64,000 bases of DNA from the NCBI RefSeq assembly GCF_033153115.1, contig NW_026889805.1:5332001-5396000 (forward strand), read 5' to 3'. A program made the translations under genes and the position numbers. Below, piece after piece: positions 5,509 through 48,005 of the stretch. This stretch comes from Saccostrea echinata. Its lineage: Eukaryota. The notes beneath the pieces are model-generated. The model did not search any database, was not told the DNA's origin, and saw nothing but the letters and a program-made list of their open reading frames with translations. Position 1 is the stretch's first letter, and every line of letters starts with the position of its first letter.

Positions 5509-13107
<7,599 letters not shown>

Positions 13108-24000: not shown

Positions 24001-25920
24001 AACTCACAAAATTCAATGAATGACATATCGCTATATCAAGAAAGAAAGAACAATGTGAATACATGGGTCTATTCTTCTACCATACCACCTACACAAACGG
24101 CAGTACCAACAACATATCAAAATACATTTTTGAAACAAGAGATATTTGCTACGAAAGCACCAAACGAATGGATGCGAGCTGGTATTGATAACCAAAATAT
24201 TGAAAATCGGAATATTTATAGTACCAAAACACCAACAGATATATCAGGACAGAAGGGAGAAAATCAGCATCAACAGTATCGTAATCAACAAAATCACCAG
24301 CAAAATAATATCAATCATTACCAACAATTTCAAACACAACATGAAGTTTATCAACATCAATCACCTCAATCCAACCAACCAAATGAATCCCAAATGAATC
24401 AAGATTTCCAAACACAACAAACATATCTTCAAAAATATAAACAAACACAGCTAAAAAACCAAAATGCATTCTCAAATCCTGGACAATTTCAACCACAAAA
24501 CGAAAAAACAAGCCAAACGAAATCGTTTTCTGATCAACAAACATTCAACAAGAAAAGCAATTATCAGCGAGAAACCCCATCCTTAGTTCATCATCAACAA
24601 CGAACCGAGCACTTTGGTCAACAACAACGAACGTTATCAAATCAACATCAACAACAGGCAAGTCAATATCAAAATGAGCAATTCAATCAAGGATACCAAA
24701 CTTCTTTCCAGAAATATAAAAAATCCAGTCTACAGCAAAATAAGAATTTTGGTTGGCAAAAACAAAGACAGCAACCAAACCAATATCAAAATGAGCAAAT
24801 GGAAAATCTACCAAATAAACAACCAATTGAACAGACACTCGGGGGAGTGGGTCATCAGAAGCAAAACTTGCTCGGAAAACATCAACAACCACGTCAACAG
24901 CAAAATAAAATAGACCAACAACAACATAATTTATTTGGAAATCAACAACACCAACAACCAAATCATCTGCAAAATGGACAAACTGGTCAAAATCAACAAA
25001 ACTCGTTCATAAATAATCCATCAGTTCAACAACAAAATACGCAAGCTGATCAACAGCTTCAAGATTCTTTTGGAAATCATCATCAACAAAACAATCAATC
25101 GCTAACTGTACAGACGGGTCGACAACAGCAAAGCTCAATCGGTATTCAGCAGCAGCAACAATCAGGCAAACACCAAAATACGCAAGAAAACTCTATGCAG
25201 AATCAGAATCATTCAGAACAACCTCAACAAGAAAACAAATTCAACCAACAAATTCAGTCTATTCAGCAGCAACAATCAAACAACCTGCAAAATCAACAAC
25301 AGGATATCAGATTTCCAAAACAAATGCAGGAACAACAGCAAGTAAATAGTTTCCATTCAAATCAGCAAGGGCAATCTGTTCAACATCAGCAACAACAAAA
25401 CCAGCAACCTGTCAATGACGGTAGAAATATGAAAAGCAATTTTCCAGTAAATACGAGACCAATTAGAAGGAGACCCAAAAATATTCCAGCGCCTGCTTAC
25501 GTAAGTAATTATTTGAATGATGGTATGTTGTTTGACTAAGTTAATAAGGAATATACTGACAAAAATATTTTTGCGGGGGAGGTGCCCCCCCTTCCGTTCC
25601 CCAGGTTCCTACGGGCCTGAGAGCGCAGTTGGTGTCTATACAAATCTAGTGCATTCTGCGTTCAACAATATTGGCATTTTACAGGGATTTTAAAGAAAGA
25701 AATATATAATATACTAGCAATTTACTAGTATAATTCCTTTAAAAAAAAAAACTAAAAAATGTAAAAAATATTTTTCAAAAATTTATAGATATTTTTATTT
25801 GAACAATAAAATGGGTTAGAGTATAAGAATCAATATTGCAGCCGTTACAGATAAAATACATAACCCGCGTAAGCGAGTAATGTAAATTTTTTTTCTGCAA
25901 TAGCTGCAACGTTAGTTCCC

Positions 25921-25960
<40 letters not shown>

Positions 25961-27466
25961 TTTCCTGTTGAAATAAAGTATATTTTGAACAGTTGGCATT
26001 CGGCGTGTACTATCCAGATGGTACAACCACAGAAGAGGAGCACGATCTTTTGGGAAAATCCATCCACACTATAACATCATATGACGCAGACAACAGTTCA
26101 CATATATCGGACTACCTCACAATGGACCATGGATGGGTGTGTGAGAACATCGTACCTCTTTCTTTAATATTAATTATAATTTATAAACCTATAAAAGATT
26201 TAATATTTGTCTTTAAAATATTTTTGACAGAATACATTTGGATTGGTGTCACAAGGCAACAACAAAGACACGTGTTATGTTGGGAAATTACAAGCTGATC
26301 TCATGAAATCATTTGAGGAGATGGTGAACAAGACAAGATTCTCCGACGTAAGTCTTCAGAGAAGTTCTCCTCACAGGTACCACACATATAGAAGTATCAT
26401 TAGATTTAATTGTAGAGTTGTTTTTTTTTCTTTATAGATTCCATTTATTGAGGCAAACTCAAATAAGTTCGTATACACAGAAGTCCAACAGATAGATTAC
26501 AACCGGGCTGTTTACGAAGTCGGGGGCTTTGTCTCGGATTCGTGTGGAAACAGAGCCAATATATTTCTTGTAGAAAGACCCCGTCATGGACGTGAGTTTT
26601 ACTCAATAACTCCCCCTTCAAATATAAAGAAAATGTGCGATAGCAGCTGGATTTGAATTTTAAAACAAATCTGCTATGACAATCAACAAATATGTCCTCT
26701 TTTCGATATTAAAATAAAATCACAAAGGTTGTACTTATACTGGTAACTCTCTCTAAATCAAAGAATGGTAAATACGATTGATGAGGAACATACACAGAGT
26801 CATAAGAAGATAAAATTCACAGAAGTTTCCTGGTTATTTCTCACCTTAAAGTTTTTTTTTAATCAATTTTCACACACAAGATATATACATAAGATACGAT
26901 GCTGGATAAAATATTCACATTGTAAATAGACTGTAAATTGAGCGTAAGCGTAAACCCTCTGTTTTGATGCAAAAGTATTCTAAATCAATAAAATGTAAGA
27001 ACATTTCTAAATCCATCAAAAGCCATTTTATTTTGAAACAGGAGCCGTAGGTGTTTATTTGATGGTAAACTGTTGAATTGTTCTGGATGTCACTCAATAA
27101 GGGGAGCGGGAAGGGCGCTTAACCAATACCTTGTTTTCTCGCAACATGAACAAACACTCCTCAACACATTATCTACACAATTACATTACAAAATAAATTT
27201 GAAATGAGAGAGAGGAAGTAAGTACCTTTTTGAGATATTTGTTATTTTCAGGGTTCAAGGCCGGCAGAAAGTTCATTCCTCCCACTGCCTGTTCATTCGG
27301 TCCTCCTCAGCAGCGTATGAACAACGCCTTGTTGAAGTGTAGCATGGGAACTTGTCGTGGAAATTACAGTTGCAATACAAAATACAACATATGTTGCCCA
27401 AAAAGTAGGTCTTCAATAATAGTTTTAGCATTTTTAAGACAGATGTTACAGGCTTTGCTGTTGTAA
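21082..27466 (+). CDS. Large low-complexity (K/H-rich then Q/N-rich) protein with BRICHOS-like domain and C-terminal lustrin-type 6-Cys module. Exons 21082-25500, 25993-26136, 26231-26347, 26438-26591, 27252-27466 (or donor at 27404); first exon not located
   Basis: 4.4-kb open exon bounded by tttag| and |gtaagt. The downstream exons join in frame (phases 0,0,0,1) to give ..MDHGWNTFGLVSQGNNKDTCYVGKL..VGGFVSDSCGNRANIFLVER.. then CSFGPP..C..C..YSC..CCP. Confidence 0.8.
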
Positions 27467-28854
27467 GATATGTCTTTTATGTTCATTGTCCCCCGATTTC
27501 GTGAAAAATATCATTCGTCTTTCTGTTCCCTTGTCAGTCTTTCTTTCTTTCATAAAAAACTTTAACATTGGACCTAACTTTTGAATGAGAAAAGATATGG
27601 CTTTCATATTTCACATGTGCATTACCTGTGACAAGAACTTTTAGAATGTACTATGATTTACGACCTCATGACCTTGTAGTTTGCAACGTTTTAACCTTGG
27701 TAATGACTTTTGTATGAGAGAAGACAGGTCTTTCATTATTACGCATTACCTGTTCATGCATTACCTGTTACCAGAACATACAACGACTTTTTATCTTATA
27801 ATTTTGACCTTGACATTGGAACTACTTTTCAAAAAGTACTACATGTATATACGGTAAAAGCATGAGGCTGTGTGTAAATCATGTGATAACAAGATTAATT
27901 GTTGTTGAAGTATGATTTTATCCAACTCATTGTGTGTTCTCTATCTCAATCCTTGGCGAGGGGATAAAACACACAACTCATTAGATAAAAGTCATATCCA
28001 ACCATAACCATGGGGGTTCCTATATTTATTGCATTAAAATATGCAAACTTTTCCCTGGTTTAGAATTTATTTAAATATTTCTACATCAAAGATTAATTTT
28101 GGACATTACAGGATAATATAGTTCTTTCAACCTTGGCTGTAGCTTCTGAACGAGAGGAGATAAGGCCATCATATTTCATATATGCATCATTTACCTGTGA
28201 CAAGACCTTTCCTAGGGTCCTTGAATTTTGACCTGCTTAAAAAAACCTTGACCTTAGCTTTTGCAAATGAAGAAACAGGGCTTCATGTGCATTACCTGTG
28301 ACAAGACTATTTTGAATGTACTATGGCTTCATGGCCATTGGGCTAGTCCGATCGAAGTTTAACTTTCAAAAACTTGAACCATCGCCGTAAGTCATCCTCT
28401 CAACATCAGAGGCCCGAGCCCCTGGAAACTCTGACAAATTTCTTCCGGGTCAGCTTCTCTCATTGAGAAGCACCATCTAAGTGGAGCTTTCATAAGTTTA
28501 CATGAAATATAAACAGAAAGGAAGCAGTTGACACCTCAATGCACGTGTAACAAGTTGTTTTTCAAAAAGGCTTAATGTCATTGACCGAGAGACAAGAAAA
28601 CAATGTGATTTCCACGAAAGACGTCGCTGCGATCAGCCCTTAAAAAATTAATGAAGCTTGTCAGTGGTCCCTCGGTCACTGTTGGACTTGAGATCCTTGA
28701 CGTTTTGTGTGGATGTACCATAAATTTGCACTAGAACATATAACATGTACTTCAAAATATTAATATAAAACTTTCTTATAAAAGTATGATGGAAGACAAG
28801 GCAGTTACAATATGCAATTTAATGTTGCATTCGAACCGATCAAATTGTTGAAAT

Positions 28855-29590
28855 GAAGAAAACACTTGCTGTGGCGTTCAACTCGACATTTAGATATATC
28901 GACGACGTATTGTCAATTAACAATGGCTATTTTCATTCTTATGTCGATACGATATATCCCGGTGAACTTGAGATAAAAGATACCACCGAGTCTGACACAT
29001 CTGTTTCATATTTGGATATTTTACTTGAAAAAGACGTTCATGGTAATCTAACAACCTTTATGATAAACGTGATGACTTTAACTTTTCAATCGTCAACTTC
29101 CCTTACTTATGCAGCAATATACCTTCATCACCTGCATACGGGGTATACATTTCTCAGTTGATTCGATACGCAAGAGCATGCTCTACGTATGTACAATTTC
29201 TAAAACGAGGTAAATTATTGACAAATAAGTTGATGAAACAAGAATATCAGCTGTCTCGTTTAAAGTCATCATTTCGTAAGTTCTATGGTCGATACAATGA
29301 CCTTGTCAGCAAATACAATTTATCATTGAGTCAAATGCTGACTGACGTTTTTCATACTAATTGTTAGGCCATTATTTACACACTGAATTGTCGACGGATT
29401 TTTCCGTTATTTCCCGATCATGACAAGGAGCACACGGCGGATGTGACCAGTCGGCAGGGGATGCTCACTCCTCCATGGCACCTGATCCCACCTCTGATGT
29501 TTGGAGGTCCGTGTTTGCTCTGCTCCTATTTTGTATTGTATAATGGACTTTTGAGCTTGAATACTGTTCGTTATCTCCATATATTTCATG
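28855..29590 (+). mobile_element. 5'-truncated Penelope-like retroelement (C-terminal RT, Naiad-like), frameshifted
   Basis: FRYIDDVLSINN..YPGELEIKDT..SYLDI..DKRDDFNF..SNIPSSPAYGVYISQLIRYARACS, with the ORF ending right after RT. It is absent from the duplicate copy (empty site aaattgttgaaatacgatttg at ~57190-57210). Confidence 0.85.
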
Positions 29591-29624
29591 ATACGATTTG
29601 TACCTTTTCATATATCTCGATCAC

Positions 29625-29930
29625 GTCGCCCGCGTGGCGCAGTGGTAAGAGCATTTGCTCTAGGATCGAGGAGTAAGTTGATCCTTGCCTCGCGGCGGTT
29701 TCGAATCCACCTTATGACGTGGAGATCAGTCTTTCATGATCAGATGAGACCGTATAAACCGAGGTAGGTGCTGTAGGTGCAGGAGGTGCTGGCACAAAAA
29801 CCTCTGTCTAAAAAGTGTCAGTGTCGAATACAGGTCTAAATTTGCAGTCCTCCACCGGCAAAGACTGCAAATTTAATTTCTATATGAGTAAAAAATTCTC
29901 GAAGGGATGTAAAATAGCAAACAAACAAAT
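29625..29930 (+). mobile_element. tRNA-derived SINE (paralogous copy at ~57235-57520)
   Basis: A box tggcgcagtgg, B box gtttcgaatcc, Deu/Nin-like gatgagaccgtataaaccgagg and an aaacaaac tail. Confidence 0.75.
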
Positions 29931-30229
29931 ATCTCGACCACAGGAGCTTATTTTTTTATAAACAATTTTTCTAGCGTATACTGCAATGTGTTAATATATT
30001 TTCCATAAAATTTCTTATGTTTGCAATACTATAACAAGTCTTTTGGTACAAAAGTGATTTACGCTAACCTTTAACAAAACTTGGAAATCAGGGATGTGTG
30101 AAATTCTTTCAAATCGCTTCCTCTACATTCAATAAAATCTGGTACACAAGTAAATGAAACTTAGATTAGTTTAATTATGATTAAAGTGCTTTAAACATTC
30201 TTTCCAACGCATATTGTTCTATGAAAATT

Positions 30230-30525
30230 CTCGGCCGTAGCTCAGTCGTGCCCAAGCCCCGGCCGCGATAGTCATAAGTCGATAAAAAAAAAAAAGGTAG
30301 TAACTGCTCCTCCGCCAAGCGCTCGGCACTTCGAAATGAAGGTTGCAAGTCTTTCGGATTAGACCTTAAAAAACTGAGGCCCCGTGTTATAGTAGGCATT
30401 ATAATGATAAAGATCCCTTACTGCTAAGTGCCGAGTAATGGTCTAAATTTGACGCCCTTCACCGGTATAATTATGGTGACGTCTCTATATGAGTGAAAAA
30501 TTATTTCATGGGAAGTAAAACAACA
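30230..30525 (+). mobile_element. Degenerate tRNA-derived SINE (Meta/Deu-like; copy at ~57855-58150)
   Basis: gtagctcagt head, tgctcctccgccaagcgctcggca and tctttcggat..accttaaaaa.cgagg.cccgtgt; the 3' end is shared with the other SINEs. Confidence 0.6.
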
Positions 30526-30917
30526 TTTTATGCGACAGTAAGGTGTCCGTCTGGCTGTCTGTCTGTTTGTAAACAATTTTTTTTCAAAATGCCACTTCTC
30601 CTACAGTTTTGCTCCAATTTAAATATAACTTGGAACACAAGAAGACTACATAATTCTGTGTATCAGTTTTTGATTTCAGTGAACGGTGTTGCCAGGGTTA
30701 CTAAAAATAGAATTTTCTCTGAAATTCTTTCAAAAGTTACTCCTCCTACAGTTTTAGTCGGATTTCAATATTCGTAACTTGGTACATAAGTAGACTACAA
30801 AAAGATAAATAATTCTATATATTGGTTTGATTTCACAGAATGGTGTTGTCATGGTTACTAAAAATAGAATTTTCTCTGAAATTCTTTCAAAACGCTACTT
30901 CTCCTGCTACAGTTTTT

Positions 30918-30932
30918 AGCTCACCTGAGCCA

Positions 30933-30974
<42 letters not shown>

Positions 30975-30996
30975 TGTCGGCGTCGGCGTCGTCGGC

Positions 30997-31038
<42 letters not shown>

Positions 31039-32953
31039 AAGAACCACTGAGCCGATTTCAACCAAACTTGCCACAAAGTATCCTTGGGTGAAGGGGATTC
31101 AGGTTTGTTCAAATGAAGGGCCATGCCCTCTTTCAAGGGGAGATAATAAAGAATTAGTGAAAAATTAATAGCATCTTTTAAAAATCTTCTTGTCAAGAAC
31201 AACAGAGCCAGGGAAGATGAAACTCATGTGGAAGCATTCTCAGGTAGTGTAGATTCAAGTTTGTTCAAATCATGACCCCCGGGGGTAGGGTGGGGCCACA
31301 ATGGAGGATCAAAGTTTTACATAGAAATATATAGGAAAAACCTTTAAAAATCTTCTTCTCAAGAACAGCAAAGCCATGATGAGTCATATTTATATAGAAG
31401 CATGCTCAGGTAGTAAAAATTCAAATTTGTTCAAATCATGACCCCCGGGGGTAGGGCGGGGCCACAATGGAGGATCAAAGTTTTACATAGAAATATATAG
31501 GAAAAATCTTTAAAAATCTTCTTCTCAAGAACAGCAAAGCCCTAATTGGTCATATTTATATGAAAGCATCCTCAGGTAGTGTAGATTCAAGTTTGTTCAA
31601 ATCATGACACCCGGGGGTAGGGCGGGGCCACAATGGAGGATCAAAGTTTTACATAGAAATAAATAGGAAAAACCTTTAAAAATCTTCTTCTCAAGAACAG
31701 CAAAGCCATGATGAGTCATATTTATATGGAAGCATCCTCAAGTAGTGAAGATTCAAGTTTGTTCAAATCATGACCCCCGAGGGTAGGGCAGGGCCACAAT
31801 GGAGGATCAAAGTTTTACATAGAAATGTATAGGAAAAATCTTTAAAAAATCTTCTTCTCAAGAACAGCAAAGCCCTGATTAGTCATATTTATATGGAAGC
31901 ATCCTCAGGTAGTAAAAATTCAAATTTGTTCAAATCATGACCCCCGAGGGTAGGGCGGGGCCACAATGGAGGATCAAAGTTTTACATAGAAATGTATAGG
32001 AAAAATCTTTAAAAAATCTTCTTCTCAAGAACAGCAAAGCCCTGATTGGTCATATTTATGTGGAAGCATCCTCAGGTTGTAAAAATTCAAATTTGTTCAA
32101 ATCATGACCCCTTGGTGTAGGGCGGGGCCACAATGGAGGATCAAAGTTTTACATAGAAATATATAGGAAAAATTTTAAAAATCTTCTTCTCAGGAACAGC
32201 AAAGCCCTGATTGATCATATTTATTTGGAAGTATCCTCAGGTTGTGTAAATTCAAGATTGTTCAAATCATGACCCCCTGGGGTAGGGCGGGGCCACAATG
32301 GAGGATCAAAGTCTTAAATAGAAATATATAGGTAAATATCTTCTGATGAAGAACTGTAAAGCCATGATTAGTCATTTTGATATGGAAGCATCCTCAGGTA
32401 GTGTAAATTCAAGTTTGTTAAAATGATGACCCCCCGGGGATAGGGATGGGCCACAATGGGGGGTCGAAAATTTTACATAGGAACATATAGGAAAATATCC
32501 TCTTCTCAAGAACTGAAAATCATGTTTAGTCATTTTGATATGGAAGCATCCTCAGATAGTGTAAATTCAAATTCGTTCAAATGATGACCCCTGGGGTAGG
32601 GTGGGGCCCAATGGGGGATTGAAAGTTTTACATAAGAACATGCAGAAAAAATATTTCTTCTCAAGAACAGAAAAGCTATGTTTAGTCATATTGAAATGGA
32701 AGCATCCTCAGGTAGTGTAGATTCAAATTTTCAAATATTGACCTCTGGGATAGGGAGGAGCCACAATGGGGGATCAAATTTTTACAAAGGATTATATGGG
32801 AAAAATTTTTCAAAAAATTTACTCAAGTACAACAAAGCCATTTGTTATATTGACATGGAAGCATCATCAGGTATCCCCCCCTCCCCCCCCCCCCCGGTAA
32901 CCTTTTCAATACTGAACTGATTTGTGCTTTTGTGCTTTTGCCTAGCCAATGTG

Positions 32954-32986
<33 letters not shown>
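30918..32986 (+). mobile_element. Helentron/HINE element carrying ~10 tandem copies of a ~166-bp satellite monomer
   Basis: Termini agctcacctgagc..gctcaagtgagc and ctcaggtgagcgatgtggcccatgggcctcttg in a T-run, with a (gtc/ggc) microsatellite. tcaaatcatgacccc recurs every ~166 bp. Absent from duplicate copy 2 (~58525). Confidence 0.92.
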
Positions 32987-32989
<3 letters not shown>

Positions 32990-33629
32990 CCAAGTGCAAT
33001 TAAAATTGACTCAGAAAAAAAAAAACTAAACCAAGGATCATTATTTTATTTATTGCTGTTGTCATAGTTTCAAGTCAAACTTCTACTTTTTTAATTAAAT
33101 AAAAACCAGTAAAGCTACATTCTTGTCAGAGACTTCTGGTTTTAAATATTTATATCTTACTTTTAAGTATGAAGAGATAAAACTGTCTTTTTTTCAGGGC
33201 CAAGCAATACAAAATGTCGGAAGATGTCTATTGGAAAGTTTTGTGTGATTCACGCGCCACAGTACGGTTATTATCCAGGCTGAGAGATGTTCGACTGAGA
33301 GTACACGAGTACTCTATCCATAAGCCGAGGCATGAAACAGTCATCGGCATCTGATTATGAGAAAAGTCCCCATGTAACCTGTCTTTGTATGCAGTGCTTG
33401 TTTTGTTGGTGCCAAATTCTGAGAGAATTTCTTCAAATTTTTTTTAATGTTATTTGAAATAAAATTGTCCAACATATTTAAGATATTATAGACTTTTAAT
33501 GATCAACTATTTCCTCTGATTTTCCTGTATTTTCAAATCTTGGTGAAAAAGGGATTTGTTCACTCTTAGAATTAAGACATGATTTTGACAATTCTTATGA
33601 CTTATTACAACATTCTCAACTACCAGGTA

Positions 33630-35028
33630 TTACTTCCAATTTACAGGTCGGTATAACATTTTCAGGAATTCTTTGTTGTCAACTTTAGTTATTATTTTCA
33701 CATTATTTGACCTCTTTAAAATCTTTGACCAGTCGACCACCATCATTCCATACGTGTATTCACCTTTGACCTCTACTGTTGCAAACACCTCTTTAGATTC
33801 TTTTACGATTGCCGATTCGTCAACTACCACTGCCATTGCGAATTCGTCAAATGGTGTGTATCGAGACCATTCTATTTGATTAGTTCTTATTTTTTCAAAT
33901 GGTTTCTTTTCTATACGTTTCAGGAAATCGTTAATTTTTGAGGGTGTCTTCCGTAGTGAATCATAATCACCCTGAAAGAAACAACATTCGTAATTCACTT
34001 ATTATATCAGCAATTCAATAAAATTACGTCTTTTTTTTTACCCATGGTAATCGTTACCCAGGCGACAGCGTTGTCACGGCAGACTTCCATGCCGACCACA
34101 GTGATAGGACCCCCTAGTTGTGTTAAGACAATTCTAGCAGCCTCAGGGTCACAAGAGAAATTAAACTCACTACAAACTGTTGAATTCCCTCTGCCTGAAA
34201 TATATGTACATTGTAATTCAATATCTTTGACGACAAAAGGGATGATCCATTCCAATAATAAGAGTCAAAAACATCTTAAAAATAACAATACATGTATTTA
34301 TTTCATTGAATATATCAAGTGCATGTATTTACATTGAACCTGGATAGATGTGTATAGGGTAACATTTCTACATTTGATTTTTAACATTTATCGGATATGT
34401 TAGATAGTAACATGAAATTGGGCAAAATTTGCTACACAAAGTGATAAAAAGCCAAGGACGAATGAAATATTTTTGTTCAACGATTTGAATACCCCTCATT
34501 TGTATGTTATAAAAAATGCGGAAAAGAACTCAAACAACCTATTAACCGTGGGAATTGTGGATCGGAAGTAAGGAAGTGTAGCTTAGCGAAAACTGTTTGG
34601 AGCATAGATCAAACAATGATATCCTCCGTTCAACCATCTAAATTTCTGTTCTATGATACGTTTGTTATACACATTATTACAATCATGACAATGGTCGTCT
34701 GCTCAACTTAATTCTGTCTTGCAATTCAATACCCGGAAATAGATTACACATCGTAATGAATGTTGGATTATTCACGATGTGGGATGTCCCCTAAGTTATG
34801 TTTTCGATTTAGTGCAAACAGGGAATGGCATGGATCGAAATGTTTCGACAGTCGTTTATAATTCAACTTTTAGCGCTGCTTACAGGTAAATATATTACTC
34901 TTATTCTGAGATATAAGTTCAGCATCATGATAGTTTATGAGTTTTATAATGTTTCATCTCAACAAGGTTTATATTTCAATATCTAAGAAATACTGTAAGG
35001 CATGACCAGTGTTAAACGTTAGCAGTCA

Positions 35029-35069
<41 letters not shown>

Positions 35070-38000
35070 GTAAGAAGAATTGTTAAAATGTAATAAAACA
35101 AAGAGCATATAACTAGACTTCATCCTTCACTATCTTATTTTACAAGCTGCTGCGAGGTAATAAAAAATATCACGAGTTTCGTAATTTATAAAATCAATAC
35201 CGCTCTTTAATCAATTGCTTCCTGACTTTTGACTACATGCACTAGTGTTTTGTTCCATGGGTTGTATTTTGTTGCATACAAAGTATTGAAATACTAAGTA
35301 CCAAAGAGATTAAAATCATGTGTATTTTTGTTTTTTATACCATTTTTTGACATGCAGACAAAGGACACTGTCGAGCACCCGATCAGGACTGAGTGGTCTT
35401 TCCATGATGGCGGCTGATTCTCGAGAAAAACGGTAGGTATTCAGTTTATATGCTAAATTTTCCTAGTCGGTAGCTTGCTTAAGTCAAGTGTGCGTTAAAG
35501 TTAGTAGCCAAAATCTTTCTTGTGCATATCGTTGAATCCTTTCAAAATTGTAACTTTATTTAACTATAATTGAGACACATGTACATGTATTTGTCCTTCA
35601 ATGAAATTCAAATACATAAAATGACCTCCGACAAAAAGGGGATGGAATAAGGATCAGACTCAAGCTCAGAAAAAACGTATTTCAATTCTTTTTTGCCCAA
35701 GATTGATGATTAGGAATGACTTATAGTCATGCTTCTGTATGTCTGTCTGCCTGCCTATTGATCTATCCGTATCTGTTCATATATACCGGTATACTGAACT
35801 CAAGTCCAACATAATATTTCCTTTATTATACACAGACGGAGAGACAGACAGACAGGTATTCTGATGCTTGATAATAGTCTATTCCTAATCCTCAAACTCG
35901 AGCCGGGGCAAAGAATTCTTTCTGAGTTTGAGTCCGATCCTTAGCCCAAATATGAGATAACTTGGAGACCGTACCTAAATATTTTTTTTTCATAAATTAT
36001 ACCAAAAAACACACAACCGCTCTAAAACAAAAACAATTTTTCCCTAAGTTTTCATCACTATTTTGCACTGTATTGTTCACATCTAGTTAAAAAAAAATTC
36101 TCAATCGTCATCAGGCGCGGATCCAGGAATTGAAGTTAGAGGGGGCGCCAAAAGTAGGCAGGGGGTCTGGGGGCCGCCTTGAGGCCCCCAGTGGGTCCAG
36201 CTCCTGTATTCTAGAGATTTTGTATGGTAAAAATGAGGTCTACCGAGTGGACATTTTTACATTTTCTCGACGAAACTATGATTTATGCTAACTTTGACAA
36301 TTTTAGGGGGGGGGGGCGCGCGCCGGGTGCGCCCCCCCCCCCTAAATCCGCCACTGGTCATTTGTAAATAAGAGTGAAACGACATCAGACTCAGGAATTG
36401 TGAAATAAGGGACTCTTTCTGCTGTAAGTCACTCTTCATTTCATTGAAAGATAAATGTTTCAGTTATTGCCGGTCCGTGTTACGTAACATATTGGCAATT
36501 TTGATAGGATTCGACAATATGCACAAGTTAAGAAAGATTTTGGCCACTATTACTTCTAACTTTAACGCACACTAGCCTTGAGCAAGGAACCGACTAGAAG
36601 AATTTAGCATCTAAACTGGATACCTACCATTTTTCTCTCGACTCTGCCGCCATCTTGGAAAGTCCACTCCTGATCGGGCATAGAAGGAAAAACTTTAAAG
36701 TCTTTATGTTTGTCGATCGCAAATGCTTTCATGTGAGTAACTTGTTACATCTTGTTCTTTTTATTATAAGGTTCTTGTCATGATAAAACATGGAAGCATA
36801 TCAATACTGAGTGTTTTAAGGTTATGGACAATCCAGAATTTTATGACAAAGCATATTTGTCGTGTAAAGAGGCGGGAGGGGAACTCCTATCTTCCGGAAG
36901 CAGACACGTTCTTCTGGATCTCAATATCACGTCTATTACGTGGTTAGGAAATTTACAAGAAAACGACAACACATCTGATTTCATCAGCTATTATGATGGG
37001 AAAGAACAGGGAAACATAACATCAACAAGACAATGTCCCAGTATTGAAAGCAGCTCCTCAATTGTTACTTTCGATTGCAACAAAAGTTCAACGGTTGTGT
37101 GTCAAGCAGTGCATTTCTCCTCGAATGAGAAGGACGGAAAAGGTTTGCACAGTCGCCATTATTATGACTAGTTTCTGAGACATTCCAGTAGCACATGATG
37201 AAAATTGCTTTAGGGGACCGAGAAAACTTAATTTAATTGCTTTATATGTTCTACTTTCAGGAATTCATTTGAAGTTTGGTAGCCATAATAATCTCTGGAG
37301 TCATCCTTCTCATTTTTCTTACACTTGTGATATACAGTGCGAAACATCGTCTGGATAATGAAGAAAGACAGAATTCAGAGACGGTGGTTTATGGCAAGTA
37401 TACACACTTGCAACAAGTTGAAGATGTGAAGCTTAATGTTATTAATGAACAGCCAAATTTTGTGCCCAACAAAACTATTTTAAGTCAAAAACCAAAACCA
37501 TCAGCAACAACAAATGGAGAAGAATTACGGGGAGTATCAGGAGAAGAGAGTGTTCGAATAAGAACGGGAAATATGTACAGTTCTCAGTCCCGTCTGCAGG
37601 TTCAGAACAAATGTTGAATGACAGAAACTGCTGATTTATAAGATAAAAGCCTATTCCTGCAGTTGTTATAAATACATGTACCAGTTTTTCAATGACTACA
37701 TGCCCGTGAAAAAAATCCAGTCGGTTACTAGTATTTTTCACTGATTGACATTTGTTTCTTACTTGATATATTTTGTTTTATAATTTTTTGAAAAATTTTT
37801 ATTTTTATATAACATCATTATGTTTTCTTTACAACCTTTATTTGGTAAAAATAATTAATGATTTTAAACTTACCATAATAATTACCGCCCATTATTACAC
37901 ATTGTTGTATTGTCTGGCCCAGGGAGGGATCCAGTCTTATAGCAGTGGCTACATTTGTAAGGGGTCCCAAACACACTAGTGTCAAACTGCCTGTAAAAAA

Positions 38001-39576
38001 TAGCAAAAATTAACTAGCTTGCTCACTGTGCTGACTTAAGTCACAATATTCTGTATGAATCTGAAGTAGGTACCGGACTTTTTCAAAAATGCTAGCAGAT
38101 GTTGAACTGATTTTTTTTTTGGTGTGTGAGTCTACATTGATGACTTAAATTTTACGTTTGCATTCCGTTTATCAATGATTTTTGACAGAATTACGACCTT
38201 TGGACTTGGAGCGGAACCAGACTACACATAGTAACGGGTAGATTGATGTAATACTCCCAGAATGCTTGTTTCTTAATAGCCAATATTTAAAACCTGGAAT
38301 CGATTTGGGATTAGGAGAAATTAATTCAATCAAAATACAGATCAGTAATGTGGACAAAGAGATTCATGTATAGAATCAAAATGAGCAGAACGTCTTTTAC
38401 CGAAATAAATTTAGACAGTAATAGCTGCAATAATGTAACCCTCTCCGATTTTTTTTTTTGGGAGAGGGCTACAACTCCTTAGGATCTCCGTAATGGTGCA
38501 AGTACGGGAGTGATTCACTACCGCACAGATTTCAGCTCAAATTATCAGTAAATGGGTATTTTATTAACATATCTTACTTGAACTCATAAAATGTAGTTAT
38601 GCAAGACATGAATTGATCCAAAAATATAAAGAACAATCCGTATATCGGTTATTTTTCATGTATGTCAACATCATCACTTGAATTTATCTGCCATGTTTAC
38701 TGATCTTGATCGATTTTATTTAGGGACAACCAATGAGAGTTCGGGATCTAGGGGAGCGGATCGTTTAGGATTTCCCTTATTTTAAGCATAAATATCACTG
38801 TTTATGAAAAAAATATCACATGGAATGCTTTTATTTATCGATGTTTAGTGGTATCATACAACACAATCATTTATCAACACCGACATTTACTTTATCAAGT
38901 GATTCTAAATTTCAAGCGCAAGTCTCAGTACATCACGCGAGAATTGTCATGGCTGCTGAAGAGAACGACTGGTAAACAGGCAGATTTATTTTACTTGGTT
39001 TTCGCGAATAAAGGGCTATGATGTTGATAGTGAATAAAAATTCCGTCTTATTGGAAGTAAGTTGAATGCAAAAACAAATTTATTTTGCCTGCAGTCGCCC
39101 GTATCTAAAAAAAATATATTTGCACAATTACGGAGATGCAGTGGAATTGTAGCCCTCTCCTGCAAATATCAGATTAAAAAAAAATCGGAGAGGGCTACAT
39201 TATTGCAGCTAAGACAGTAATAGAATTGAGAACAGGGTTCGTGCCACACAAAAACCTGATCATTCAATAAGTTTCACCTTTTCATCCCATTCCCTAAATT
39301 CTTATTAGTCGAAAAGGTTTTCCAAATCTTACGTTCATGAAACGCTCGTGTAATGCATGATACAATGTATCTGAATGTAGTGTGGAGCTCCTCAGATTTC
39401 TCTTTAGGAAGTTGCGAGTATTTCTTAACAATCTTGTATACTAGTAGTCAACAGTAAGCAAATGACATATATTATATCATTTTAAAATTATTTTGGAATA
39501 AAGACTTTTTAGCAATACTTAATACTTAAAATATCACAATAATTGTGAATTTCAGTGTATCGCGACCAATTTTTTT

Positions 39577-39613
<37 letters not shown>

Positions 39614-40552
39614 TGCAGTGTGCATGTGAAAAGAAATAATAGAAAATGTGCCACTGGAAATTATAAGTTTGACTTAAAGCGGAAGTGATAGGGACCAGAA
39701 ACAAACTGTTCATCAAAGCTGCAATAATTTGCCTCGTGCAAAGTACTAATAAAATGTGGGTATCCATACCTCTGAACTCGTTGCAGATTCGCACAATGGC
39801 GGCTGAGGCAGATTCCGGATTGATCAAAGATTCGTCTACTGGTTCGGGATCTGGCGAATCACCCAGCCCATCCCAGCCATGGTATGGTTCGACATCATGG
39901 CGTCTCTCATTACCCAAAATACTTTTCTCGCTTCCAACATAGACTGGTATCTAATTGTAATCATTAGTTCGACAGAAGGTCATTCAGATTACCACAGGTA
40001 AAGGGAGTAATAATGCATCTATATATTACCTGCAGAACCGTAGCTCTCTGGGACAGAAAAACTGGGACAAGCATACAAGAGACGCCTGAGAGTCTAGTTG
40101 TCCGAATTTACACACCCAGGGAGCTATAGTTCAGAACAAGCTTACAGATCATTGTCGATTTCCTCTGGTGGAAATTAAAATTTGATTCTGATTTACCTAT
40201 GAGTAAGGTTAAATGTTAATCAGGATAAATATTCTTTACAAATAACTGACAAAAGAGCTACATATAACAGCATCACCTAAACAAAGTCAATTGTTGACAC
40301 GGACAGACATGGACAATTTCTACAGAAAATTCTAATCAAACTGTCTGCAATATTGAAAGGGGTATTACTTACGTCTAATCTTTCTGCAACTCGGAGTATG
40401 CGCAGTACGTTGACAGCCACTTGCTTTGGAAGTACGTTCCCTTGGACAATGGTAATGGCAACGACATTTACTTCTGGGGAACTGAGAGCCAAAAACAGAG
40501 CTTGGGCATCATCAATCCCTGCATCACAGTCGATCAAGATAGATTTTGGCAT
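33630..40552 (-). CDS. Nucleoside hydrolase (IUNH family), 318 aa, copy 1. Exons 40552-40373, 39950-39770, 37990-37874, 34194-34058, 33971-33630
   Basis: DCDAGIDDA metal-binding motif, HGWDGLGD, LGPLTNVA, IMGG, GN..SEFNFSCDPEAA, GMMVVDW. Introns are GT-AG and the spliced frame is open over 957 nt. Confidence 0.93.
34825..37358 (+). CDS. C-type-lectin-like protein nested antisense in hydrolase intron 3, copy 1; frameshifted before the TM helix. Exons 34825-34885, 36771-37142, 37261-37358
   Basis: Signal-like MAWIEMFRQSFIIQLLALLT|G, then CHDKTWKHINTECFKV..AYLSCKEAGGELL..WLG..C..C..VVCQ. Exon 3 has gaagtttggtagcc versus gaagttgttggtagcc in copy 2 (2-nt loss). Confidence 0.7.
35378..36678. mobile_element. 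Old DNA transposon with ~150-bp TIRs in lectin intron 1 (also in copy 2, ~60878-61664)
   Basis: cccgatcagga..gtggtctttcca.gatggcggc..ggtaggtat.cagtttatatgctaaatt is inverted at 36520-36678. Confidence 0.75.
36112..36356. mobile_element. GC-rich MITE with 5-bp TSD (gtcat), copy-1 specific
   Basis: gtcat|caggcgcggat ... atccgccactg|gtcat; copy 2 has a single gtcat at ~61344. Confidence 0.75.
38422..39211. mobile_element. Mutator-like non-autonomous element, 9-bp TSD, copy-1 specific
   Basis: agacagtaa|tagctgcaataatgta.ccctctccgattttt ... aaaaatcggagaggg.tacattattgcagcta|agacagtaa; empty site ggacagtaatagaa at ~63396. Confidence 0.88.
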
Positions 40553-41502
40553 TGTTCTGACTTTTATAAACAAGATGATATCCTTGGTAGATCCGCTGCG
40601 GCCACGGGAGCTGAAGGAGGACGTGTGTATAAAGCACTTATATATATGTTCACTTTTTAACCGAGAAATTTACTCAGATTTGGACTTATTATGACTTTCT
40701 TCTAAGTGGAGGGCAGGTTTATACCTTTATGGTCTTGATGATATGGATCAACATTAAATAGATGATTACATGATATATTATACTTCATCATCCCTCCTTC
40801 CCCTCCTATCAAATTTTCCCTCCTATTCAACAATAACGATTTTTGAAAAGAAATACAATTTATTTAATTTATCTCATTTTTTAAATTTGATCTGTGTGAT
40901 CAGTATTTAACTACTACTTAGTACTGATTCTCTCTTATGAAATTTCATGATGGAAATATGCGAGTTATATGCAAAAATAAATGATGAAGAGGGTTTTAAT
41001 CTTTCATAGATCATTCAACAGCTAGCACCTTTAATCTTTCTATAAAAGTGTTTTGAGACGCATTAAAGATCTGCATAAATCGTCCATTTCGTAGAGAGAC
41101 TGTCCATGTTTTCAACACGACACTATTATTCCCAAAAGAGTGAAAATTATTTCAGGCTAGCAATTTGCTTTCGTAAATGTTACGTTATGCTTTCAAACAT
41201 AACAACAATATACAGTCTGTTGTGATGCATAATAGCAAATTATCCAATAAAGCAAACATCATGTACTATAATTATGATACACGTTATTTAGGAACATTGG
41301 ATACTCCAAAAAATATGCTAAGAAATTTGTAAAACTTATATTATTTCAATTACGCATATTTATCACAAAATTTTCCTATCAAACCAGCCTTATTTCTTTA
41401 ATTTCCCCAAATCTCTAGTTTTATATTTACATGTATATTGAAATTTAATGCAAAATCATGAAAAATTAAATACCATATAAAAATTAAATAAATAAAATTA
41501 AA

Positions 41503-42245
41503 TTTACACACTGAATTGTAGACGGATTTTCCGTTATTTCCCGATCATGACAAGGAGCACACGGCGGGTGTGACCGGTCGGCAGGGGATGCTCACTCCTC
41601 CATGGCACCTGATCCCAACTCGGTCCGTGTTTGCTCTGCTCCAAAATTTTTATTGATTAATGGACTTTTGAGCTTGAATACTGTTCGTTATCTCCATAGA
41701 TTTTACACCCAAAAAGGAATATAAATTTACTCTAATTTGTATACGTAACAAACTAATTTTAAACATGAAGAAATGAAATACCCTCCCCCCCCCCCCCCAA
41801 AAAAAAAGAAGAATATTAATTAACCGTAATTTGACCATGTAACAAAATAATTTGTGCCTAAAACAACGAAATTCTAGAGTGTTACTTTCTCTAGATTTTG
41901 GGTATCCTATGATCTTAATTCTGAATGTAATGTTCGCCATGTAACTGCGAATGAATGATGTATGAATATAGCGAACAATAATCATGCTCAAAAGTCTAAT
42001 TAAACAAATGAACACAAATTGAGAGCAGGGCAAACACGGACTCCTGGAAACACCAGAGGTGGGATCCGAGGGAGCCATGGAGAACCATAGAATTTGTTGA
42101 CTTTAAACGAGATTGTTGATACCCTTCTATCACCAACTTATTTGTCAGAAGACTGCATTGGTGTAGAAATTTTGCGTGTGCATCATGCTCGTACGTATCG
42201 CACCAAATGGAAGATATAAACACCATATGCAGGTGAAATGGTATA
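41503..42245. mobile_element. Two further Penelope-like 3' fragments in opposite orientations (41503-41698 +, ~41970-42245 -)
   Basis: 41503-41698 nearly matches 29374-29580. The second fragment encodes decayed ..LLTNKLVIEGYQQSRLKS on - and shares the 3' UTR. Confidence 0.75.
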
Positions 42246-43382
42246 TTGCTATGACTTTTTTACGTCATATTGTAGACTGGATTATCTATACCTTAATTGC
42301 ATTCGTTGGCGTTCGACAGTTACGGAATTGACCGAGTTTAATCCGCAGTGTGGGTACAACCAAATTTACATCAAGTATCACAAGCATGGAAGGAAACACA
42401 AGATATGTCAAAATAAAAAGTAAAAGGTATAACAAAACATTTATTGACTGTGCTCGGGCAATATGTGTTTTGTCAAACCCTTGAACCATGGAAACTGTTT
42501 GCATTCGGCCTAACGGCCTCAGGCAAACATTTTGGTTCTTGGATCCGACAAAACGCATACTGCTCTCGAACCAAGTCAATAAATGTATACTAATACACCT
42601 TCGTGCGAACAAGATACTCGGTAAGTCGTTCGAACGACATGATATCTCGTCTGCATGTCCCAAATACAATGCATATAATCGTACTTTTGCATGAAAAATC
42701 TCTGTATTATATTGAAAGAAAGGTCAGGAGCGTTACAGGCCTCCGACAAAACATTATCTTTAGAGCAAAGTCAAATTTCTTTGTCGCCACAATGATTAGA
42801 TGAAAACACGTAGACGAGGAAAAGAAGCAAGTTGCCTAACATTTGGAGAAATCAACATGAAGAAACCAACCCAACAATTTATGTATGCTTGTATATTTTA
42901 GTTACACCTTTGAAATGTTATTGTTTGAGTAATGAGTATGATTGCAATTATGTGGAATTCATGCATGCACTTTTTAATTTACAGGTTCAGAATTTCACAC
43001 GTTAATGTTCGAGGTCTTGAGTGGAGTTGCAAATGTTATATTAAACTCAAAAGCTTTTGAGGTCGTTCTACAAAATCTCATGAAATTTTATAAAATCAAT
43101 TTTGTTAAGAAGTCTGATTTAATAAAACTGTTTACCTTTGAGAATTGTTATCTACAGCAAAACACCTACCTGCTAGCTGTTACGATTGTATGTATGACTC
43201 TGCATGACAACATTTACTGCATGGAGTACCTGATAAGAATAATTTATACGCAATGTCGTATGACATAAACAAAGTTATTATCAGTTCAAAAAGGTTCTGT
43301 TACTTAAACAATTTACTAAGTAATATTTTCTTATAATACTAATCAATTTTGCTTTATTTAAGCTAAAATTTGAATTATGGAG

Positions 43383-44476
43383 AGTGGCTATGAATATAAA
43401 GGTAAGTGATTATGAATATGAAAGTAAGTGACTGTGGATATAAAGGTGAGTGCCTGTTGGTATAAAGGCGAGTGGCTATGGATGTAAAGGTGAGTGGCTG
43501 CAGATATAAAGGTAAGTGGATGTGGATGTAAAGGTGAATGGCTGTGGGTATAAAGGTGAATGGATGTGGATCTAAGGGTGAGTGGTTATGGATATAAAGG
43601 TGAGTGGTTATGGATTTAAAAGTGAGTGGTTATGGATATAAAGATAAAGTGGTTATGGATATAAAGGTGAGTGGTTATGGATTTAAAAGTGAGTGGTTAT
43701 GGATATAAAGGTAAAGTGGTTATGGATATAAAAGTGAATGGTTATGGATTTAAAGGTGGGTGGCTATGGATATAAAGTTGAGTGGTTATGAATGTAAAGG
43801 TGAGTGGCTGTGGGTATAAACTTAAGGTATTGGTTGTGGATATGAAGACGAGTGACTATGGATGTAAAGGTGAGTGGATTTGGGTATAGAGGTGAGTAGC
43901 TGCAGATATAAAAGTAAGTGGTTATGGGTATAAAGAAGAGTGGCTATGAATGTAAAGGTGAGTGGCTGTGGGTATAAAGGTGAGTGGCTGCAGTTATAAA
44001 GGTGGGTGGATGTGGGTATAAAGGTGAGTGACTGTGGGTATAAAGGTAAGTTGGTTAAGGTATAAAGGTGATTGGCTTTGAATGTAAAGGTGAGTGACTA
44101 TGGATGTAAAGGTGAGTGGATGTGATGTAAAGGTGGGTGGATGTGGGTAAAAAGGTGAGTGGTTATGGATATAAAGGTGAGTGGATGTGTTGTAAAGGTG
44201 AGCAGTTGTGGATATAAAGGTGAATAGTTATGGATATAAATGTGGGTGGCTATGGATATAAAGTTGAGTGGTTATGAATGTAAAGGTGAGTGGCTGTGGG
44301 TATAAAGGTGAGTCGATGTAAAGGTGGGTGGATGTGGGTATAAAGGTGAGTGGACATGGGTATAAAGGTTAGTGGCTGCGGATATAAAGATGAGTGGCTG
44401 CGGGGATGAAGATGAGTGGATATGGATACAAGGGTTAGTGACTATGGATATAAAGGTTAGTGGTAATGGATATAAA
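43383..44476. repeat. ~1.1-kb minisatellite with a 22-bp unit (consensus gtggttatggatataaaggtga)
   Basis: About 50 imperfect tandem units are directly visible. Confidence 0.95.
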
Positions 44477-47400
44477 ACTATTTTTCCCATCTTTGCTTAA
44501 AAACTTATCTGTCTACAGATCTATATAACATATCGTTATTAGACTTATATGGCTCTTCGTCCTTTAAAATATATTCTTTAAAAAAAGACCAAGGACACTT
44601 ATCTGCTCTTTAAATGAAATGTTTCCCCCTAATACTGGTTTATGAATGAACATCAACAGTTTTAACAAATATTCAGAAAATCCATGAGCAAAATATAGAC
44701 TGAATTTCATGTTCATATATCTTATAAAGTGATATGGTCCACTATTTGCAATATGCATATCTGAAGATGTAATGGGTATAAGGAGACTTTTTTTATTTAG
44801 GGGGTTTTCAGAGTATTATGGGAAGTTGGTCCCCCAACGTTTTTGACAGTCTTTTTTTATTTATTTTTTAGTTTTTTTTTAGTTTTTGTTTGTTTGTTTT
44901 CTTTTCTTTCTGTCTTTTTTTTCACTTATCAGAATTTTGGGGAAGTTGCCCACCCCCCCCCACCCCCCTTTGAAACCGTTGCTACAGGCCTTATGGGGAA
45001 AAAAAGATTCAGGTTCGTATGAAATTACTTTTTCAATAAAATCACTTATTTCGGTACATATTTGAAAATTTGAGCATATTATGATTATGTTTATAAACAG
45101 AGTTTTTATGAGTATTTATGAATATCTACCGAGGTATTATTGATAGACCTCAAATATCCACATATGACAGGGTTTGGACAATACAGGCTGGTAAGGCTTG
45201 CTGGACGACCTCGACCACGATTTGTATTTTGTAAAAATAGTTTCACACCTGAATGAATATCTGTAAACTTGACATATATAATAAAAACATATGTATGTAT
45301 ATTTTTTAGATTTATTTGCTAATTTTCGAGGTTGGCGTTTCACCTGGGTGGTCATAAACACCCTTCCCAGAGATTTAAAGTGAGTGTCATTTATAACATT
45401 GCATGCTTATTAATTAATAAATATCATACATATATGGACTCTTTTGGCAGTGAATATAGGACTTGAATGAGAGGTTAATATTGATATTTTTCTGATGAAT
45501 ATCAAACCATATTCACCACAAAAGAGTCCCTAATTGATGTATTATATAATCAAAATTGGAATAAACATGATAAATAAGACAGCGAGGCTGCATGGTGACA
45601 CTGTTTTCACTATCAAACTTCTGTCACAGAAAGATTTAAAAAATGTCCAGATTACAAGCAGGGACCTATATCTAGTCAAACCTTGTTATCTCAAACTCTG
45701 TGAGACCTAGAAAAAACTTCAAGATGTCTGAGGATTCCAGAGATAGACTGAGGGTAAAATTCCTAAAAAAAAAAAAAATTACTGTTTGGGACTTGCAAAT
45801 CACTGCCGTGACATATCCATGGTAATCGAGATATTGGTGTTCGAGATACCAAAGTTCAATTGTAATAACTTAGTGTATACCGGTCCCTCTTACAAGTTAG
45901 AACTTCTGTGTTTTCCTTTCATTGTGTGTAATTGAAACATCAAACTGTTTGCATTGAAAATAATTCAGGCTTGCCTAACATTTTTTCCTGCTCAGATATA
46001 CAGCTGGCTTCAGCCATTGCAACTATATCGTTTACAACATTGTTTGTGATCACAATTGCAGCTGCACGCACACTGACCCTCCGGTGATTATTAGATTAGG
46101 ACTCAAATCCAGTGAATATGTAGTGTTATGAACTGTTTGCACTTGTTTAGATTATATACGGACTATTAGTAGACTATATAATAAACAGTGTCATGAACTA
46201 TCTAGGTTTGTATAGAATACCGTATATAGGGACTATTAATAAGGTGTAACATAATATTTTGATACTGCGGAATATTGAACGCAGGTTTAATATATCGCAT
46301 AATAATTCGAACCTGGGTTCACTTTTTAGCTGCAATATAATAAACCCCCTATAAAATATTGAACACCAGGTTTATAACATCATAACATTTTGCAGCAAAA
46401 TATTGACTCCCCTCAATGATTTTATTTTTCGGTAGTGTGTGTATGTGTGTGAACTCCTCATCTTTTAAATGGGAATGTTTGGAAGGGGGTTCAAAATCTT
46501 ATGGTCATAATATTTTGAACCCTGGGTTTAATATTTTTAGGGGGTTCAATATTTTGAACCCGGATTAAAAATATCAGGGCCTGGGTTCAATATATTATAT
46601 GACATCGGTATATAATAAACTTTGATCTTGGTTCAGGATTCTTTATCATTTTCGTAAGGACATGAATGTATGATGTGGAAAACATTTTTTTGTATCAATC
46701 ATGGTAATTCCATTCTGTGGGTGAACTCATTGGTACTTGTTCTAGCACGATTAATGTTAAAGCTCTTTCTTTCTTGTGTAATTGTTGACTAGCCTACTAC
46801 CAGCATTCATTCATTTAACTTATATCATGATTGTATAATTCAGCTTGATTTGGCCCATTTTCCACAAAAAAGCTAATATGTTAATGTACAATGTATGCTA
46901 TTTATGAAATGCATGTACTACACATATTTCAAATTATTTTTTTCTTCTCTAGGGCTCTTCAGGTTTTAATAAAGCTCAAACTTGATACAAAAAAGTATAT
47001 TGCCAATGACACCACAATAGCTGAATTGTTCTCAAAGACAGCAGCCAAATATCCAAATAAAGACTGTATACTTTTTTGAGAAGCAGCGATGGACATTCAA
47101 GGATGTGGATATATATGTAAATCGTGTAGCCAATTACTTCCAGAAGGAAGGGTACCAGAAGGGAGATGTTGTGGCCATTTTGATGGAGAACAGGCCCGAG
47201 TACATCTGTTTCTGGCTAGGTCTATCAAAGATTGGAGCTGTAGCAGCCTTGATAAACTATAACCTCAGAAATCAACCCTTGGAACACTCTGTTTCTGCAG
47301 CTGAAGCCAAAGGCTTTGTATTTGCAGGAGATTTGTCAACTGGTACATAGAGAAAATAGCAAGTTTTTAAATAAACTTTTGATTTTATTCCTTATAAACA

Positions 47401-47740
47401 CAAGAAGATAAAGATAATATGAAATTATGGCCAAAGACCTGAATTACATTCTTAATTTAGAGAGAGTTGAATTTGTAAGACAGAGGTTATTGCACTTCAC
47501 AAACACACTTACTTCTGTATTTTTTTTTTCAGCTGTGGAAGAAATAATGCTAGTCTATCTAGAGAAATAAAGCTTTCTTGTGTTGGAAGTTTAGTTAGTT
47601 CAGGACTTTCACCAATTTATATGGATCCAATTTTACAGAAAAGTCCAGACTTTCTACCTAGGAAAGTAAGGGTTAAGTTTACAGGTAATTGCTGGTTCCA
47701 GTCTTTCCTCCTAGAAAAGTCAGGGTTAAGTTAACAGGTA

Positions 47741-47947: not shown

Positions 47948-48005
47948 TAATTGCTGGGATGTTTAAGGGGAATCATACATAGATTTTGCTCAATCTTAAG
48001 ATGAA

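Follow-up and report, generated by a model that had tools for sequence, protein, structure and literature searches.

The window (64,000 nucleotides of Saccostrea echinata contig NW_026889805.1, positions 5,332,001 to 5,396,000 of the forward strand in assembly GCF_033153115.1) contains two copies of a nucleoside hydrolase (NH) gene on the minus strand, each with five coding exons, GT-AG introns and an intact open reading frame (ORF) for a protein of 318 amino acids. Copy 1 spans positions 40552 to 33630, and copy 2 runs from 64698, past the window end (locus L001), to 59162. The gene models agree with proteins P0026 and P0027 (source name: nucleoside hydrolase-like, S. echinata). In copy 1, exon E1 (40373..40610) comprises part of the 5' UTR, the start codon at 40552 and the DxDxxxDD fingerprint; E2 (39770..39950) encodes His84 as well as Val80, Asn117 and Phe119, which are derived by outgroup comparison; E3 (37874..37990) is the same in both copies; E4 (34058..34194) contains codon 199 (Arg, 34076-34078), again derived by that comparison; and E5 (33630..33971) encodes the last 113 residues and the stop codon. 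The models of E1, E4 and E5 were also supported by RNA contigs. A non-coding first exon, E0, was placed at 43170..43260 (minus strand, far end approximate) using an RNA contig of run X3, which fits the copy-2 version instead. The corresponding exons of copy 2 are E5 (59162..59503), E4 (59594..59730, with Tyr199), E3 (62858..62974), E2 (63920..64000 within the window, extending to 64100), E1 (64519-64698 in window-extended coordinates, locus L001) and E0 (near 67300, from an RNA-contig match).

The two proteins are about 97% identical, with 17 differing codons and eight of 318 residues replaced (copy 1/copy 2: R77P, V80D, N117R, F119Y, R199Y, S241P, T244I and F246C); exons 1 and 3 are free of replacements. 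The first-pass annotation had reported three replacements within six codons of a last exon that was otherwise identical in protein. Translation of both genes confirmed this, as the 113-residue last exons differ solely at S241P, T244I and F246C. Codon 246, directly before the calcium-binding Asp247, reads TTT (Phe) at 33851-33849 in copy 1 and TGT (Cys), the ancestral state by outgroup comparison, at 59383-59381 in copy 2; codons 241 (Ser) to 244 (Thr) of copy 1 (33855..33866) belong to a loop that, in the structural model, lies ahead of helix 246-255. The changes previously listed as CRDN/CYDN and CNEF/CREY are likewise real and correspond to R199Y and to N117R with F119Y, whereas R77P and V80D had been missed because both lie past the window end. 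The chance of three of eight replaced codons falling inside six codons anywhere in 318 was P = 0.03 (simulation; post hoc). By Nei-Gojobori counting, 10 of the 19 base changes are replacements and 9 are silent; the pairwise dN/dS, a ratio that pools both branches, is 0.34 (Fisher P = 0.025 versus equal rates). Exon 5 (342 bases) shows seven differences between the copies, which is under the mean of the duplicated unit, and intron 4 (33972-34057) differs at 9 of 66 columns, compared with a unit mean of 4.5%. A peak of divergence at codon 246, as a sign of an old balanced allele, was sought between the copies and was absent, intron 4 alone being raised.

The tandem duplication and its junction

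Self-comparison revealed a direct tandem duplication of 27.5 kb that holds both hydrolase copies. Unit 1 lies at 25511..52579 and unit 2 at 53210..64000, continuing to 78505 past the window; the units show 4.5% substitution divergence over 17,744 gap-free aligned columns, and the 22.6-Mb contig has no gap across the duplication. The junction is occupied by a filler of 630 bp (52580..53209), identified by genome comparison as an internal piece of a dispersed repeat. It is 95-97% like three other sites in the genome, is flanked by a 5-bp direct repeat and has no counterpart at either outer end of the duplication; together with the lack of a gap, this favours a real rearrangement. The three other sites share the ends of the filler only because they are longer copies of the repeat, and a whole small transposon at the junction was ruled out, given that the filler is an internal piece of a longer element. 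The repeat showed a weak match to a tyrosine-recombinase N-terminal domain (E 0.048) and is presumably of the DIRS type.

The breakpoints cut two neighbouring genes. What unit 1 contains of a long-chain fatty acid transport/AMP-binding gene is a broken 5' half (45328..52428, plus strand; Pfam AMP-binding, copy comparison), in which a deletion of about 920 bp has removed the start of exon 1, two frameshifts are present and the sequence is cut off at the junction. The gene, which we take from its sequence to be fatty-acid-transport-like, is whole in unit 2 (about 71,900-81,650, loci L001-L002), where it stands head to head with the hydrolase. The broken and intact versions differ by 8 replacement and 14 silent codon changes (ratio 0.17; P = 0.011 versus neutral decay since the duplication). 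As these remaining differences are mostly silent, the units were likely already different haplotypes when they were joined; the duplication would thus have captured an already diverged haplotype, and most of the unit divergence likely predates it. Hydrolase intron 3 harbours a nested antisense gene, defined by spliced RNA contigs (plus strand; 34727..37631 in copy 1, 60250-62615 in copy 2), whose product has a hydrophobic stretch and a weak C-type-lectin-like domain (UL45, E 4e-6; Lectin_C, 0.004; both below the cut-off). In copy 1, a 2-base deletion near 37275 causes a frameshift, whereas the RNA contigs lack this deletion.

Residue 246 and the hydrolase family

Both copies matched Pfam family PF01156 over the whole domain (residues 5-308; 278 and 283 bits versus a cut-off of 34.2) and are the same at D8, D10, D14, D15, N39, H84, N163, E169, F170, N171 and D247. 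The DxDxxxDD fingerprint and the third calcium-binding Asp about 230 residues further on (D8, D10, D14, D15 and D247) are therefore present in both; calcium- and ribose-ligand roles were taken from sections of two reviews (PMC8910321 and PMC10526354) and from family knowledge. The best match among solved structures was the Caenorhabditis elegans chain 5mj7 (E 5e-46), in which the Cys preceding the Asp aligns with F246; in Leishmania 8ctm, the aligned residue is the His that precedes the Asp. Sequence alignment thus places residue 246 at the His/Trp/Cys position, one residue ahead of the last calcium-binding Asp, as had been proposed. An AlphaFold model of copy 1 (mean pLDDT 92.6, built on a 24-sequence alignment) has the NH fold, with TM scores of 0.83-0.92 to solved NHs (0.89 to 5mj7 and 0.92 to 3fz0), and supports the match at the level of the fold, the assignment of residue 246 coming from the sequence alignment. 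Its Z scores were 41-44.5 versus group I/III-type chains and about 36 versus group II, placing it nearer to group I.

In the consulted sections of PMC8910321 and PMC10526354, the residue before the last Asp is given as His in group I, Trp in group II and Cys in group III, with a role in leaving-group activation. The group I His is absent from both oyster copies. The group II Trp is absent as well, being replaced by Phe in copy 1 and Cys in copy 2, and so is the second Trp of the beta3-alpha3 loop, where both copies have His84 (Trp86 lies two residues further); the two extra beta3-beta4 crossover helices of group II are lacking in the copy-1 model, which has coil at 66-102 and one helix at 108-118. 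The Cys that marks group III is found in copy 2 (C246) and not in copy 1 (Phe246), which descends from group III though it is without this marker. Group III members usually have a second, paired active-site Cys, according to a section of PMC10526354. Both copies have Asn39 where 5mj7 has Cys, as do 137 of the 150 best related clusters (Asn), and their other Cys residues are at 167, 174 and 198. The Cys of 5mj7 at the Asn39 position is presumably the paired catalytic residue; in the C. elegans enzyme, the two are reportedly Cys253 and Cys42.

At seven of the eight differing sites, copy 2 equals the nearest outgroup protein (P0001), position 77 alone being reversed, so that seven of eight replacements (binomial P = 0.07) and nine of ten base changes (P = 0.02) fall on the copy-1 side. 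Judged by this comparison, Phe246, Arg199, Ser241 and Thr244 are derived. Residues C246, Y199 and D80 are invariant in six of six oyster Cys proteins; positions 241 and 244 are variable among oysters. The orthologues of Saccostrea cucullata, Ostrea edulis and Crassostrea gigas/angulata are 75-94% identical and all keep Cys246 and Tyr199, and three other last exons found in the S. echinata genome encode Cys before Asp. The earlier proposal that Phe is the new state is borne out by these comparisons. The other NH loci of the genome lie on L004 (5963-9299), L007 (451-1148), L005 (9186-9446) and L006 (753-3369) and have Cys wherever that exon was seen; the piece on L007 appears frameshifted.

The position itself is naturally variable. 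Among the 150 best clusters at 50% identity (one misaligned, eight without an aligned Asp), it is occupied by Cys in 79, Ala in 21, Pro in 16, Tyr in 10, Trp in 5, Gly in 4, Ser in 3, Phe in 2 and His in 1. About four in ten are thus without Cys, and 17 of the 150 carry an aromatic residue (Tyr, Trp or Phe). One crustacean protein carries Phe and three hemichordate proteins carry Trp. Phe at this site is rare, whereas an aromatic residue is not. A FastTree phylogeny built from 147 sequences (280-420 aa long and with the Asp; the misaligned one was dropped and 16 earlier hits were added) placed the aromatic residues in 15 separate groups, three of them adjacent and several weakly supported. As many nodes are weak, 15 is an upper figure, and aromatic residues would have arisen about ten or more times in the family. 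By the cluster tally, the His/Trp/Cys scheme leaves out many of the residues that occur naturally (Ala, Pro, Tyr, Gly, Ser, Phe), and position 246 is no strict specificity switch. The first-pass annotation had called the residue specificity-defining, which overstates its role: in the cited section of PMC10526354, the grouping is described as "not based on substrate specificity", with varied preferences in the Cys group, and Cys occurs in just the 79 clusters given above. Ala (P0060, P0128 and 19 others) and Pro (P0078, P0095 and 14 others) are the commonest alternatives to Cys, the Ala class going unmentioned in the sections of PMC8910321 and PMC10526354 consulted. Searches of open-access text brought up no study of this gene or of a family member with Phe at the site; alignment figures supplementing the reviews might include such enzymes.

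For the Phe form, Ca2+, ribose and the attacking water would be handled as in other family members, with D10, D15, D247, D14, N39, N163, E169 and N171 kept. Since Phe has no proton to give, leaving-group activation would fall to stacking of Phe246 on the base, by analogy to Trp260 of group II, and/or to the retained loop residue His84, as proposed for an archaeal enzyme that has neither His nor Trp at this site. The expected outcome would be an altered turnover, leaning towards purine nucleosides, with no new reaction. Retention of the calcium- and ribose-binding residues makes it likely that the Phe246 enzyme works, Phe taking over from the Cys chemistry by stacking on the base. A loss of activity is quite possible, because Cys is catalytic in the studied group III enzyme and because Cys246 and Tyr199 are invariant in all six oyster Cys proteins. 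According to the sections of PMC8910321 drawn on here, the C. elegans enzyme is the only group III member studied, its Cys being catalytic and acting in leaving-group activation; the same review (2022) states that the manner in which the group III Cys activates the leaving base is unknown.

Known enzymes offer partial parallels. The fold is shared with the C. elegans NH (PDB 5MJ7, TM 0.89), and copy 2 also shares its Cys, whereas copy 1 has Phe for Cys and both oyster copies have Asn39 for Cys and His84 for Phe. The top structural match was Trypanosoma brucei IG-NH (PDB 3FZ0; Z 44.5, rmsd 1.6 over 308 residues), with the second-ranked match within 1 Z. This enzyme is described in a section of PMC8910321 as a hybrid with a group I fold and a likely base activation by stacking. 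It is the nearest precedent for the stacking proposed in the oyster Phe enzyme, although IG-NH has two Trp residues (same section) and the oyster enzyme one Phe and His84, at 33-36% identity. With Trypanosoma vivax IAG-NH (group II, Trp83/Trp260), copy 1 has in common an aromatic residue before the last Asp; the W260A exchange in that enzyme is reported to lower the rate a thousandfold (section of PMC8910321). The oyster enzyme differs from it in lacking the second Trp and in having Phe rather than Trp, and the similarity is limited to a Z score of about 36 and 18% identity. The Sulfolobus solfataricus enzymes IAG-NH and CU-NH (3T8I and 3T8J) resemble copy 1 in that they are active without His or Trp at the site, and the loop His was suggested as proton donor (section of PMC8910321); 3T8I has Pro before the Asp where copy 1 has Phe.

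RNA contigs and the form carried by other animals

RNA evidence consisted of assembled contigs from five of 10 listed runs (X1-X5; four samples, three studies, two organism labels), none of the ten being recorded as RNA or genomic DNA. Such contigs drop minor forms, so that a weakly expressed Cys copy could go unseen. Spliced contigs across exons 4-5 were present in all five runs, including X1, which is labelled 'DNA?'. Runs X1, X2, X4 and X5 agree with copy 1 at all three replacement sites of exon 5 (59382, 59388 and 59398 in copy-2 numbering), X3 differs from copy 1 in exon 5 by a single silent change (33900), and the exon 4 pieces of X1, X2 and X3 show no difference from copy 1. The Phe form is thus transcribed and spliced, and it was present in five of five runs. 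The first-pass annotation had counted a variant without read support or an unexpressed Phe copy as grounds against its proposal; the contigs support the codon in every run, and the ORF of copy 1, said to have stayed intact, is so. Because Phe was read in all five runs, it is no sequencing error. For Cys246, an error is unlikely, since the copy-2 residues at this site and at the two neighbouring replacements are those of the outgroup, a pattern that an error would not produce. A Cys-type exon 4-5 contig was not seen in the five runs, which, for contigs, does not show that this copy is silent.

The contigs pass from copy-1-type to copy-2-type letters in a zone at about 37.0-37.3 kb (36998..37275). 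Left of this switch they equal copy 1, with 0 differences in 3' UTR pieces where the copies differ at 8-9 sites and 0 of 8 differences in an intron piece (36357-36555). Right of it, copy-2 letters were found at 37417 and 37456 in four of four runs, and the copy-2 state of the 2-base indel near 37275 and the insertion at 37559 in three of four runs each. The E0 contig of X3 has 0 mismatches to copy 2 and 2 to copy 1. Several right-side assignments are counts of differences, not individual letters: by count, an intron-2 piece of X1 is copy-2-type at six of six sites, and an exon-1 piece of X4 shows five differences from copy 1 where the copies differ at six. A letter of a third type at 37979 lies on the same contig as Phe in X1 and, in X4, on the contig with this exon-1 piece. 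The contigs of the other animals accordingly match neither unit throughout. Letters of the copy-2 type also occur on the left side, at 59110-59133 in X5, at about 58800-58834 in X4 and X5, and at 35935/35947/35951 in X3; one 49-base intron piece of X5 (depth 3.4) is wholly of this type. As the longer left-side pieces are mosaics of both types, these letters suggest shared polymorphism, though the inner segment described below could be their source.

The simplest reading is that the other animals carry one copy, composed of a copy-2-type 5' half and the Phe 3' half, and that the reference has an extra inner segment of about 25 kb (about 37.1 to 62.1 kb, the switch zone marking its inferred edge) that comprises the 5' half of copy 1 and the Cys-bearing 3' half, as well as the junction and the broken genes. 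Under this reading, R199, S241, T244 and F246 would lie in the common expressed gene and V80, N117 and F119 in the inner segment, and three of the four changes of the expressed gene would fall inside six codons (P about 0.002, a post hoc figure for a loop that varies). The claim that copy 1 gained Phe after the duplication is not supported: contigs of other animals combine a 5' half of the copy-2 type with the 3' half bearing Phe, which fits Phe as the usual single-copy form. Polymorphic duplications were described as common in oysters in a genome-wide study on Ostrea edulis (bioRxiv 10.1101/2025.06.24.661118), and the present locus resembles these in being a diverged tandem segment that is seemingly absent from other animals.

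Origin and status of the Phe form

Because the runs are copy-1-type on the left and copy-2-type on the right, as single-copy chromosomes would be, the Phe form is likely the usual one in the species, with the Cys half representing an older allele that has been preserved. The full reading we prefer, in which Phe246 is the ordinary and still active form and the Cys246 half sits as an older allele in an extra, decaying 25-kb segment, is held tentatively, at a little short of an even chance. On this view, the outer parts of the duplication would by now look like the common chromosome, and the inner part, with its broken transport gene, frameshifted nested gene and repeat-derived junction, would be decaying. 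It is rather unlikely that the changes Y199R, P241S, I244T and C246F were linked and swept through the species, converting a Cys-assisted into an aromatic-stacking enzyme, with the polymorphic duplication keeping the Cys allele as a permanent heterozygote and with the same switch having occurred some ten or more times in the family. A slightly better case, if still an unlikely one, can be made for relaxed constraint, with Cys246Phe and Tyr199Arg crippling an enzyme whose gene is transcribed yet drifting, backed up by Cys paralogs elsewhere. The role of Cys in leaving-group activation in the C. elegans enzyme (section of PMC8910321) is in line with this, as are the joint alteration of two sites invariant in other oysters, the Cys found at the site in at least three other loci of the genome and the frequent dispensability of family members (sections of PMC8910321 and PMC10526354); dN/dS is under 1 yet not divisible by branch. 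On the other hand, the ORF, the splice sites and all calcium and ribose residues are intact, exons 1 and 3 are without replacement, the changes are grouped near the active site instead of scattered (the clustering given above, again post hoc), and Cys is missing from about four in ten of the best related clusters.

The remaining explanations concern the duplication itself. Fixed paralogs, of which copy 1 acquired Phe and a new substrate preference after the duplication while copy 2 holds the old job, would account for two intact ORFs, for the seven of eight replacements on the copy-1 side, for a junction that looks like a real rearrangement and for the expression of the Phe 3' half. They are improbable in view of RNA contigs that differ from the reference copy 1 at the 5' end, of the lack of a Cys-type exon 4-5 contig in five runs (with minor forms dropped), of the split of seven changes into four in the outer and three in the decaying inner segment, and of a unit divergence that seems mostly older than the duplication. 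An assembly artefact, in which two haplotypes of one heterozygous animal were written in tandem and Phe and Cys are alleles, is quite improbable. The unit divergence of 4.5%, the many indels and the mostly silent coding change resemble diverged haplotypes, and there is no third copy on another contig; yet the contig has no gap, the filler and its direct repeat occur at neither outer end, unit 1 as a haplotype would need a frameshift in the nested gene along with a triply broken transport gene, and neither unit is matched along its whole length by other animals. Splicing from exons 0-3 of copy 2 over about 28 kb to exons 4-5 of copy 1, with both copies in all animals, would likewise yield copy-2-type 5' ends with Phe. 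This is very improbable, as the opposite-strand nested gene would have to leave out that segment as well, and the left/right pattern recurs in contigs from introns.

The residue swap is thus real, derived, expressed and located at a catalytic position, while the history of the duplication probably differs from that in the first proposal. An expressed Cys-to-Phe form beside a 97% identical ancestral version constitutes a natural pair for testing the role of the Cys by kinetics, albeit with a narrow reach (one enzyme in one species, with no known phenotype). For oyster genomics, the locus advises caution, since a pair of genes annotated as 'paralogs' may represent halves of different alleles within a duplication seemingly lacking in other animals.

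Several minor features were noted in and around the duplication. Tandem arrays with units of about 166 bp and 22 bp (31173-32873 and 43379-44480) vary in place and size between the duplication units, and a frameshifted reverse-transcriptase-like fragment (28823-29364, plus strand; recognised by eye, the part tested having no Pfam match) is present in unit 1 only. The left breakpoint lies at the end of a Gln/Asn repeat-rich open frame of 1485 codons without a Pfam match (21082-25536, plus strand). At lower positions, the minus strand contains a DEAD-box helicase exon (10284-10637) and, at 2-2798, part of a retrotransposon that encodes reverse transcriptase and RNase H domains and has an ORF of 466 aa upstream.
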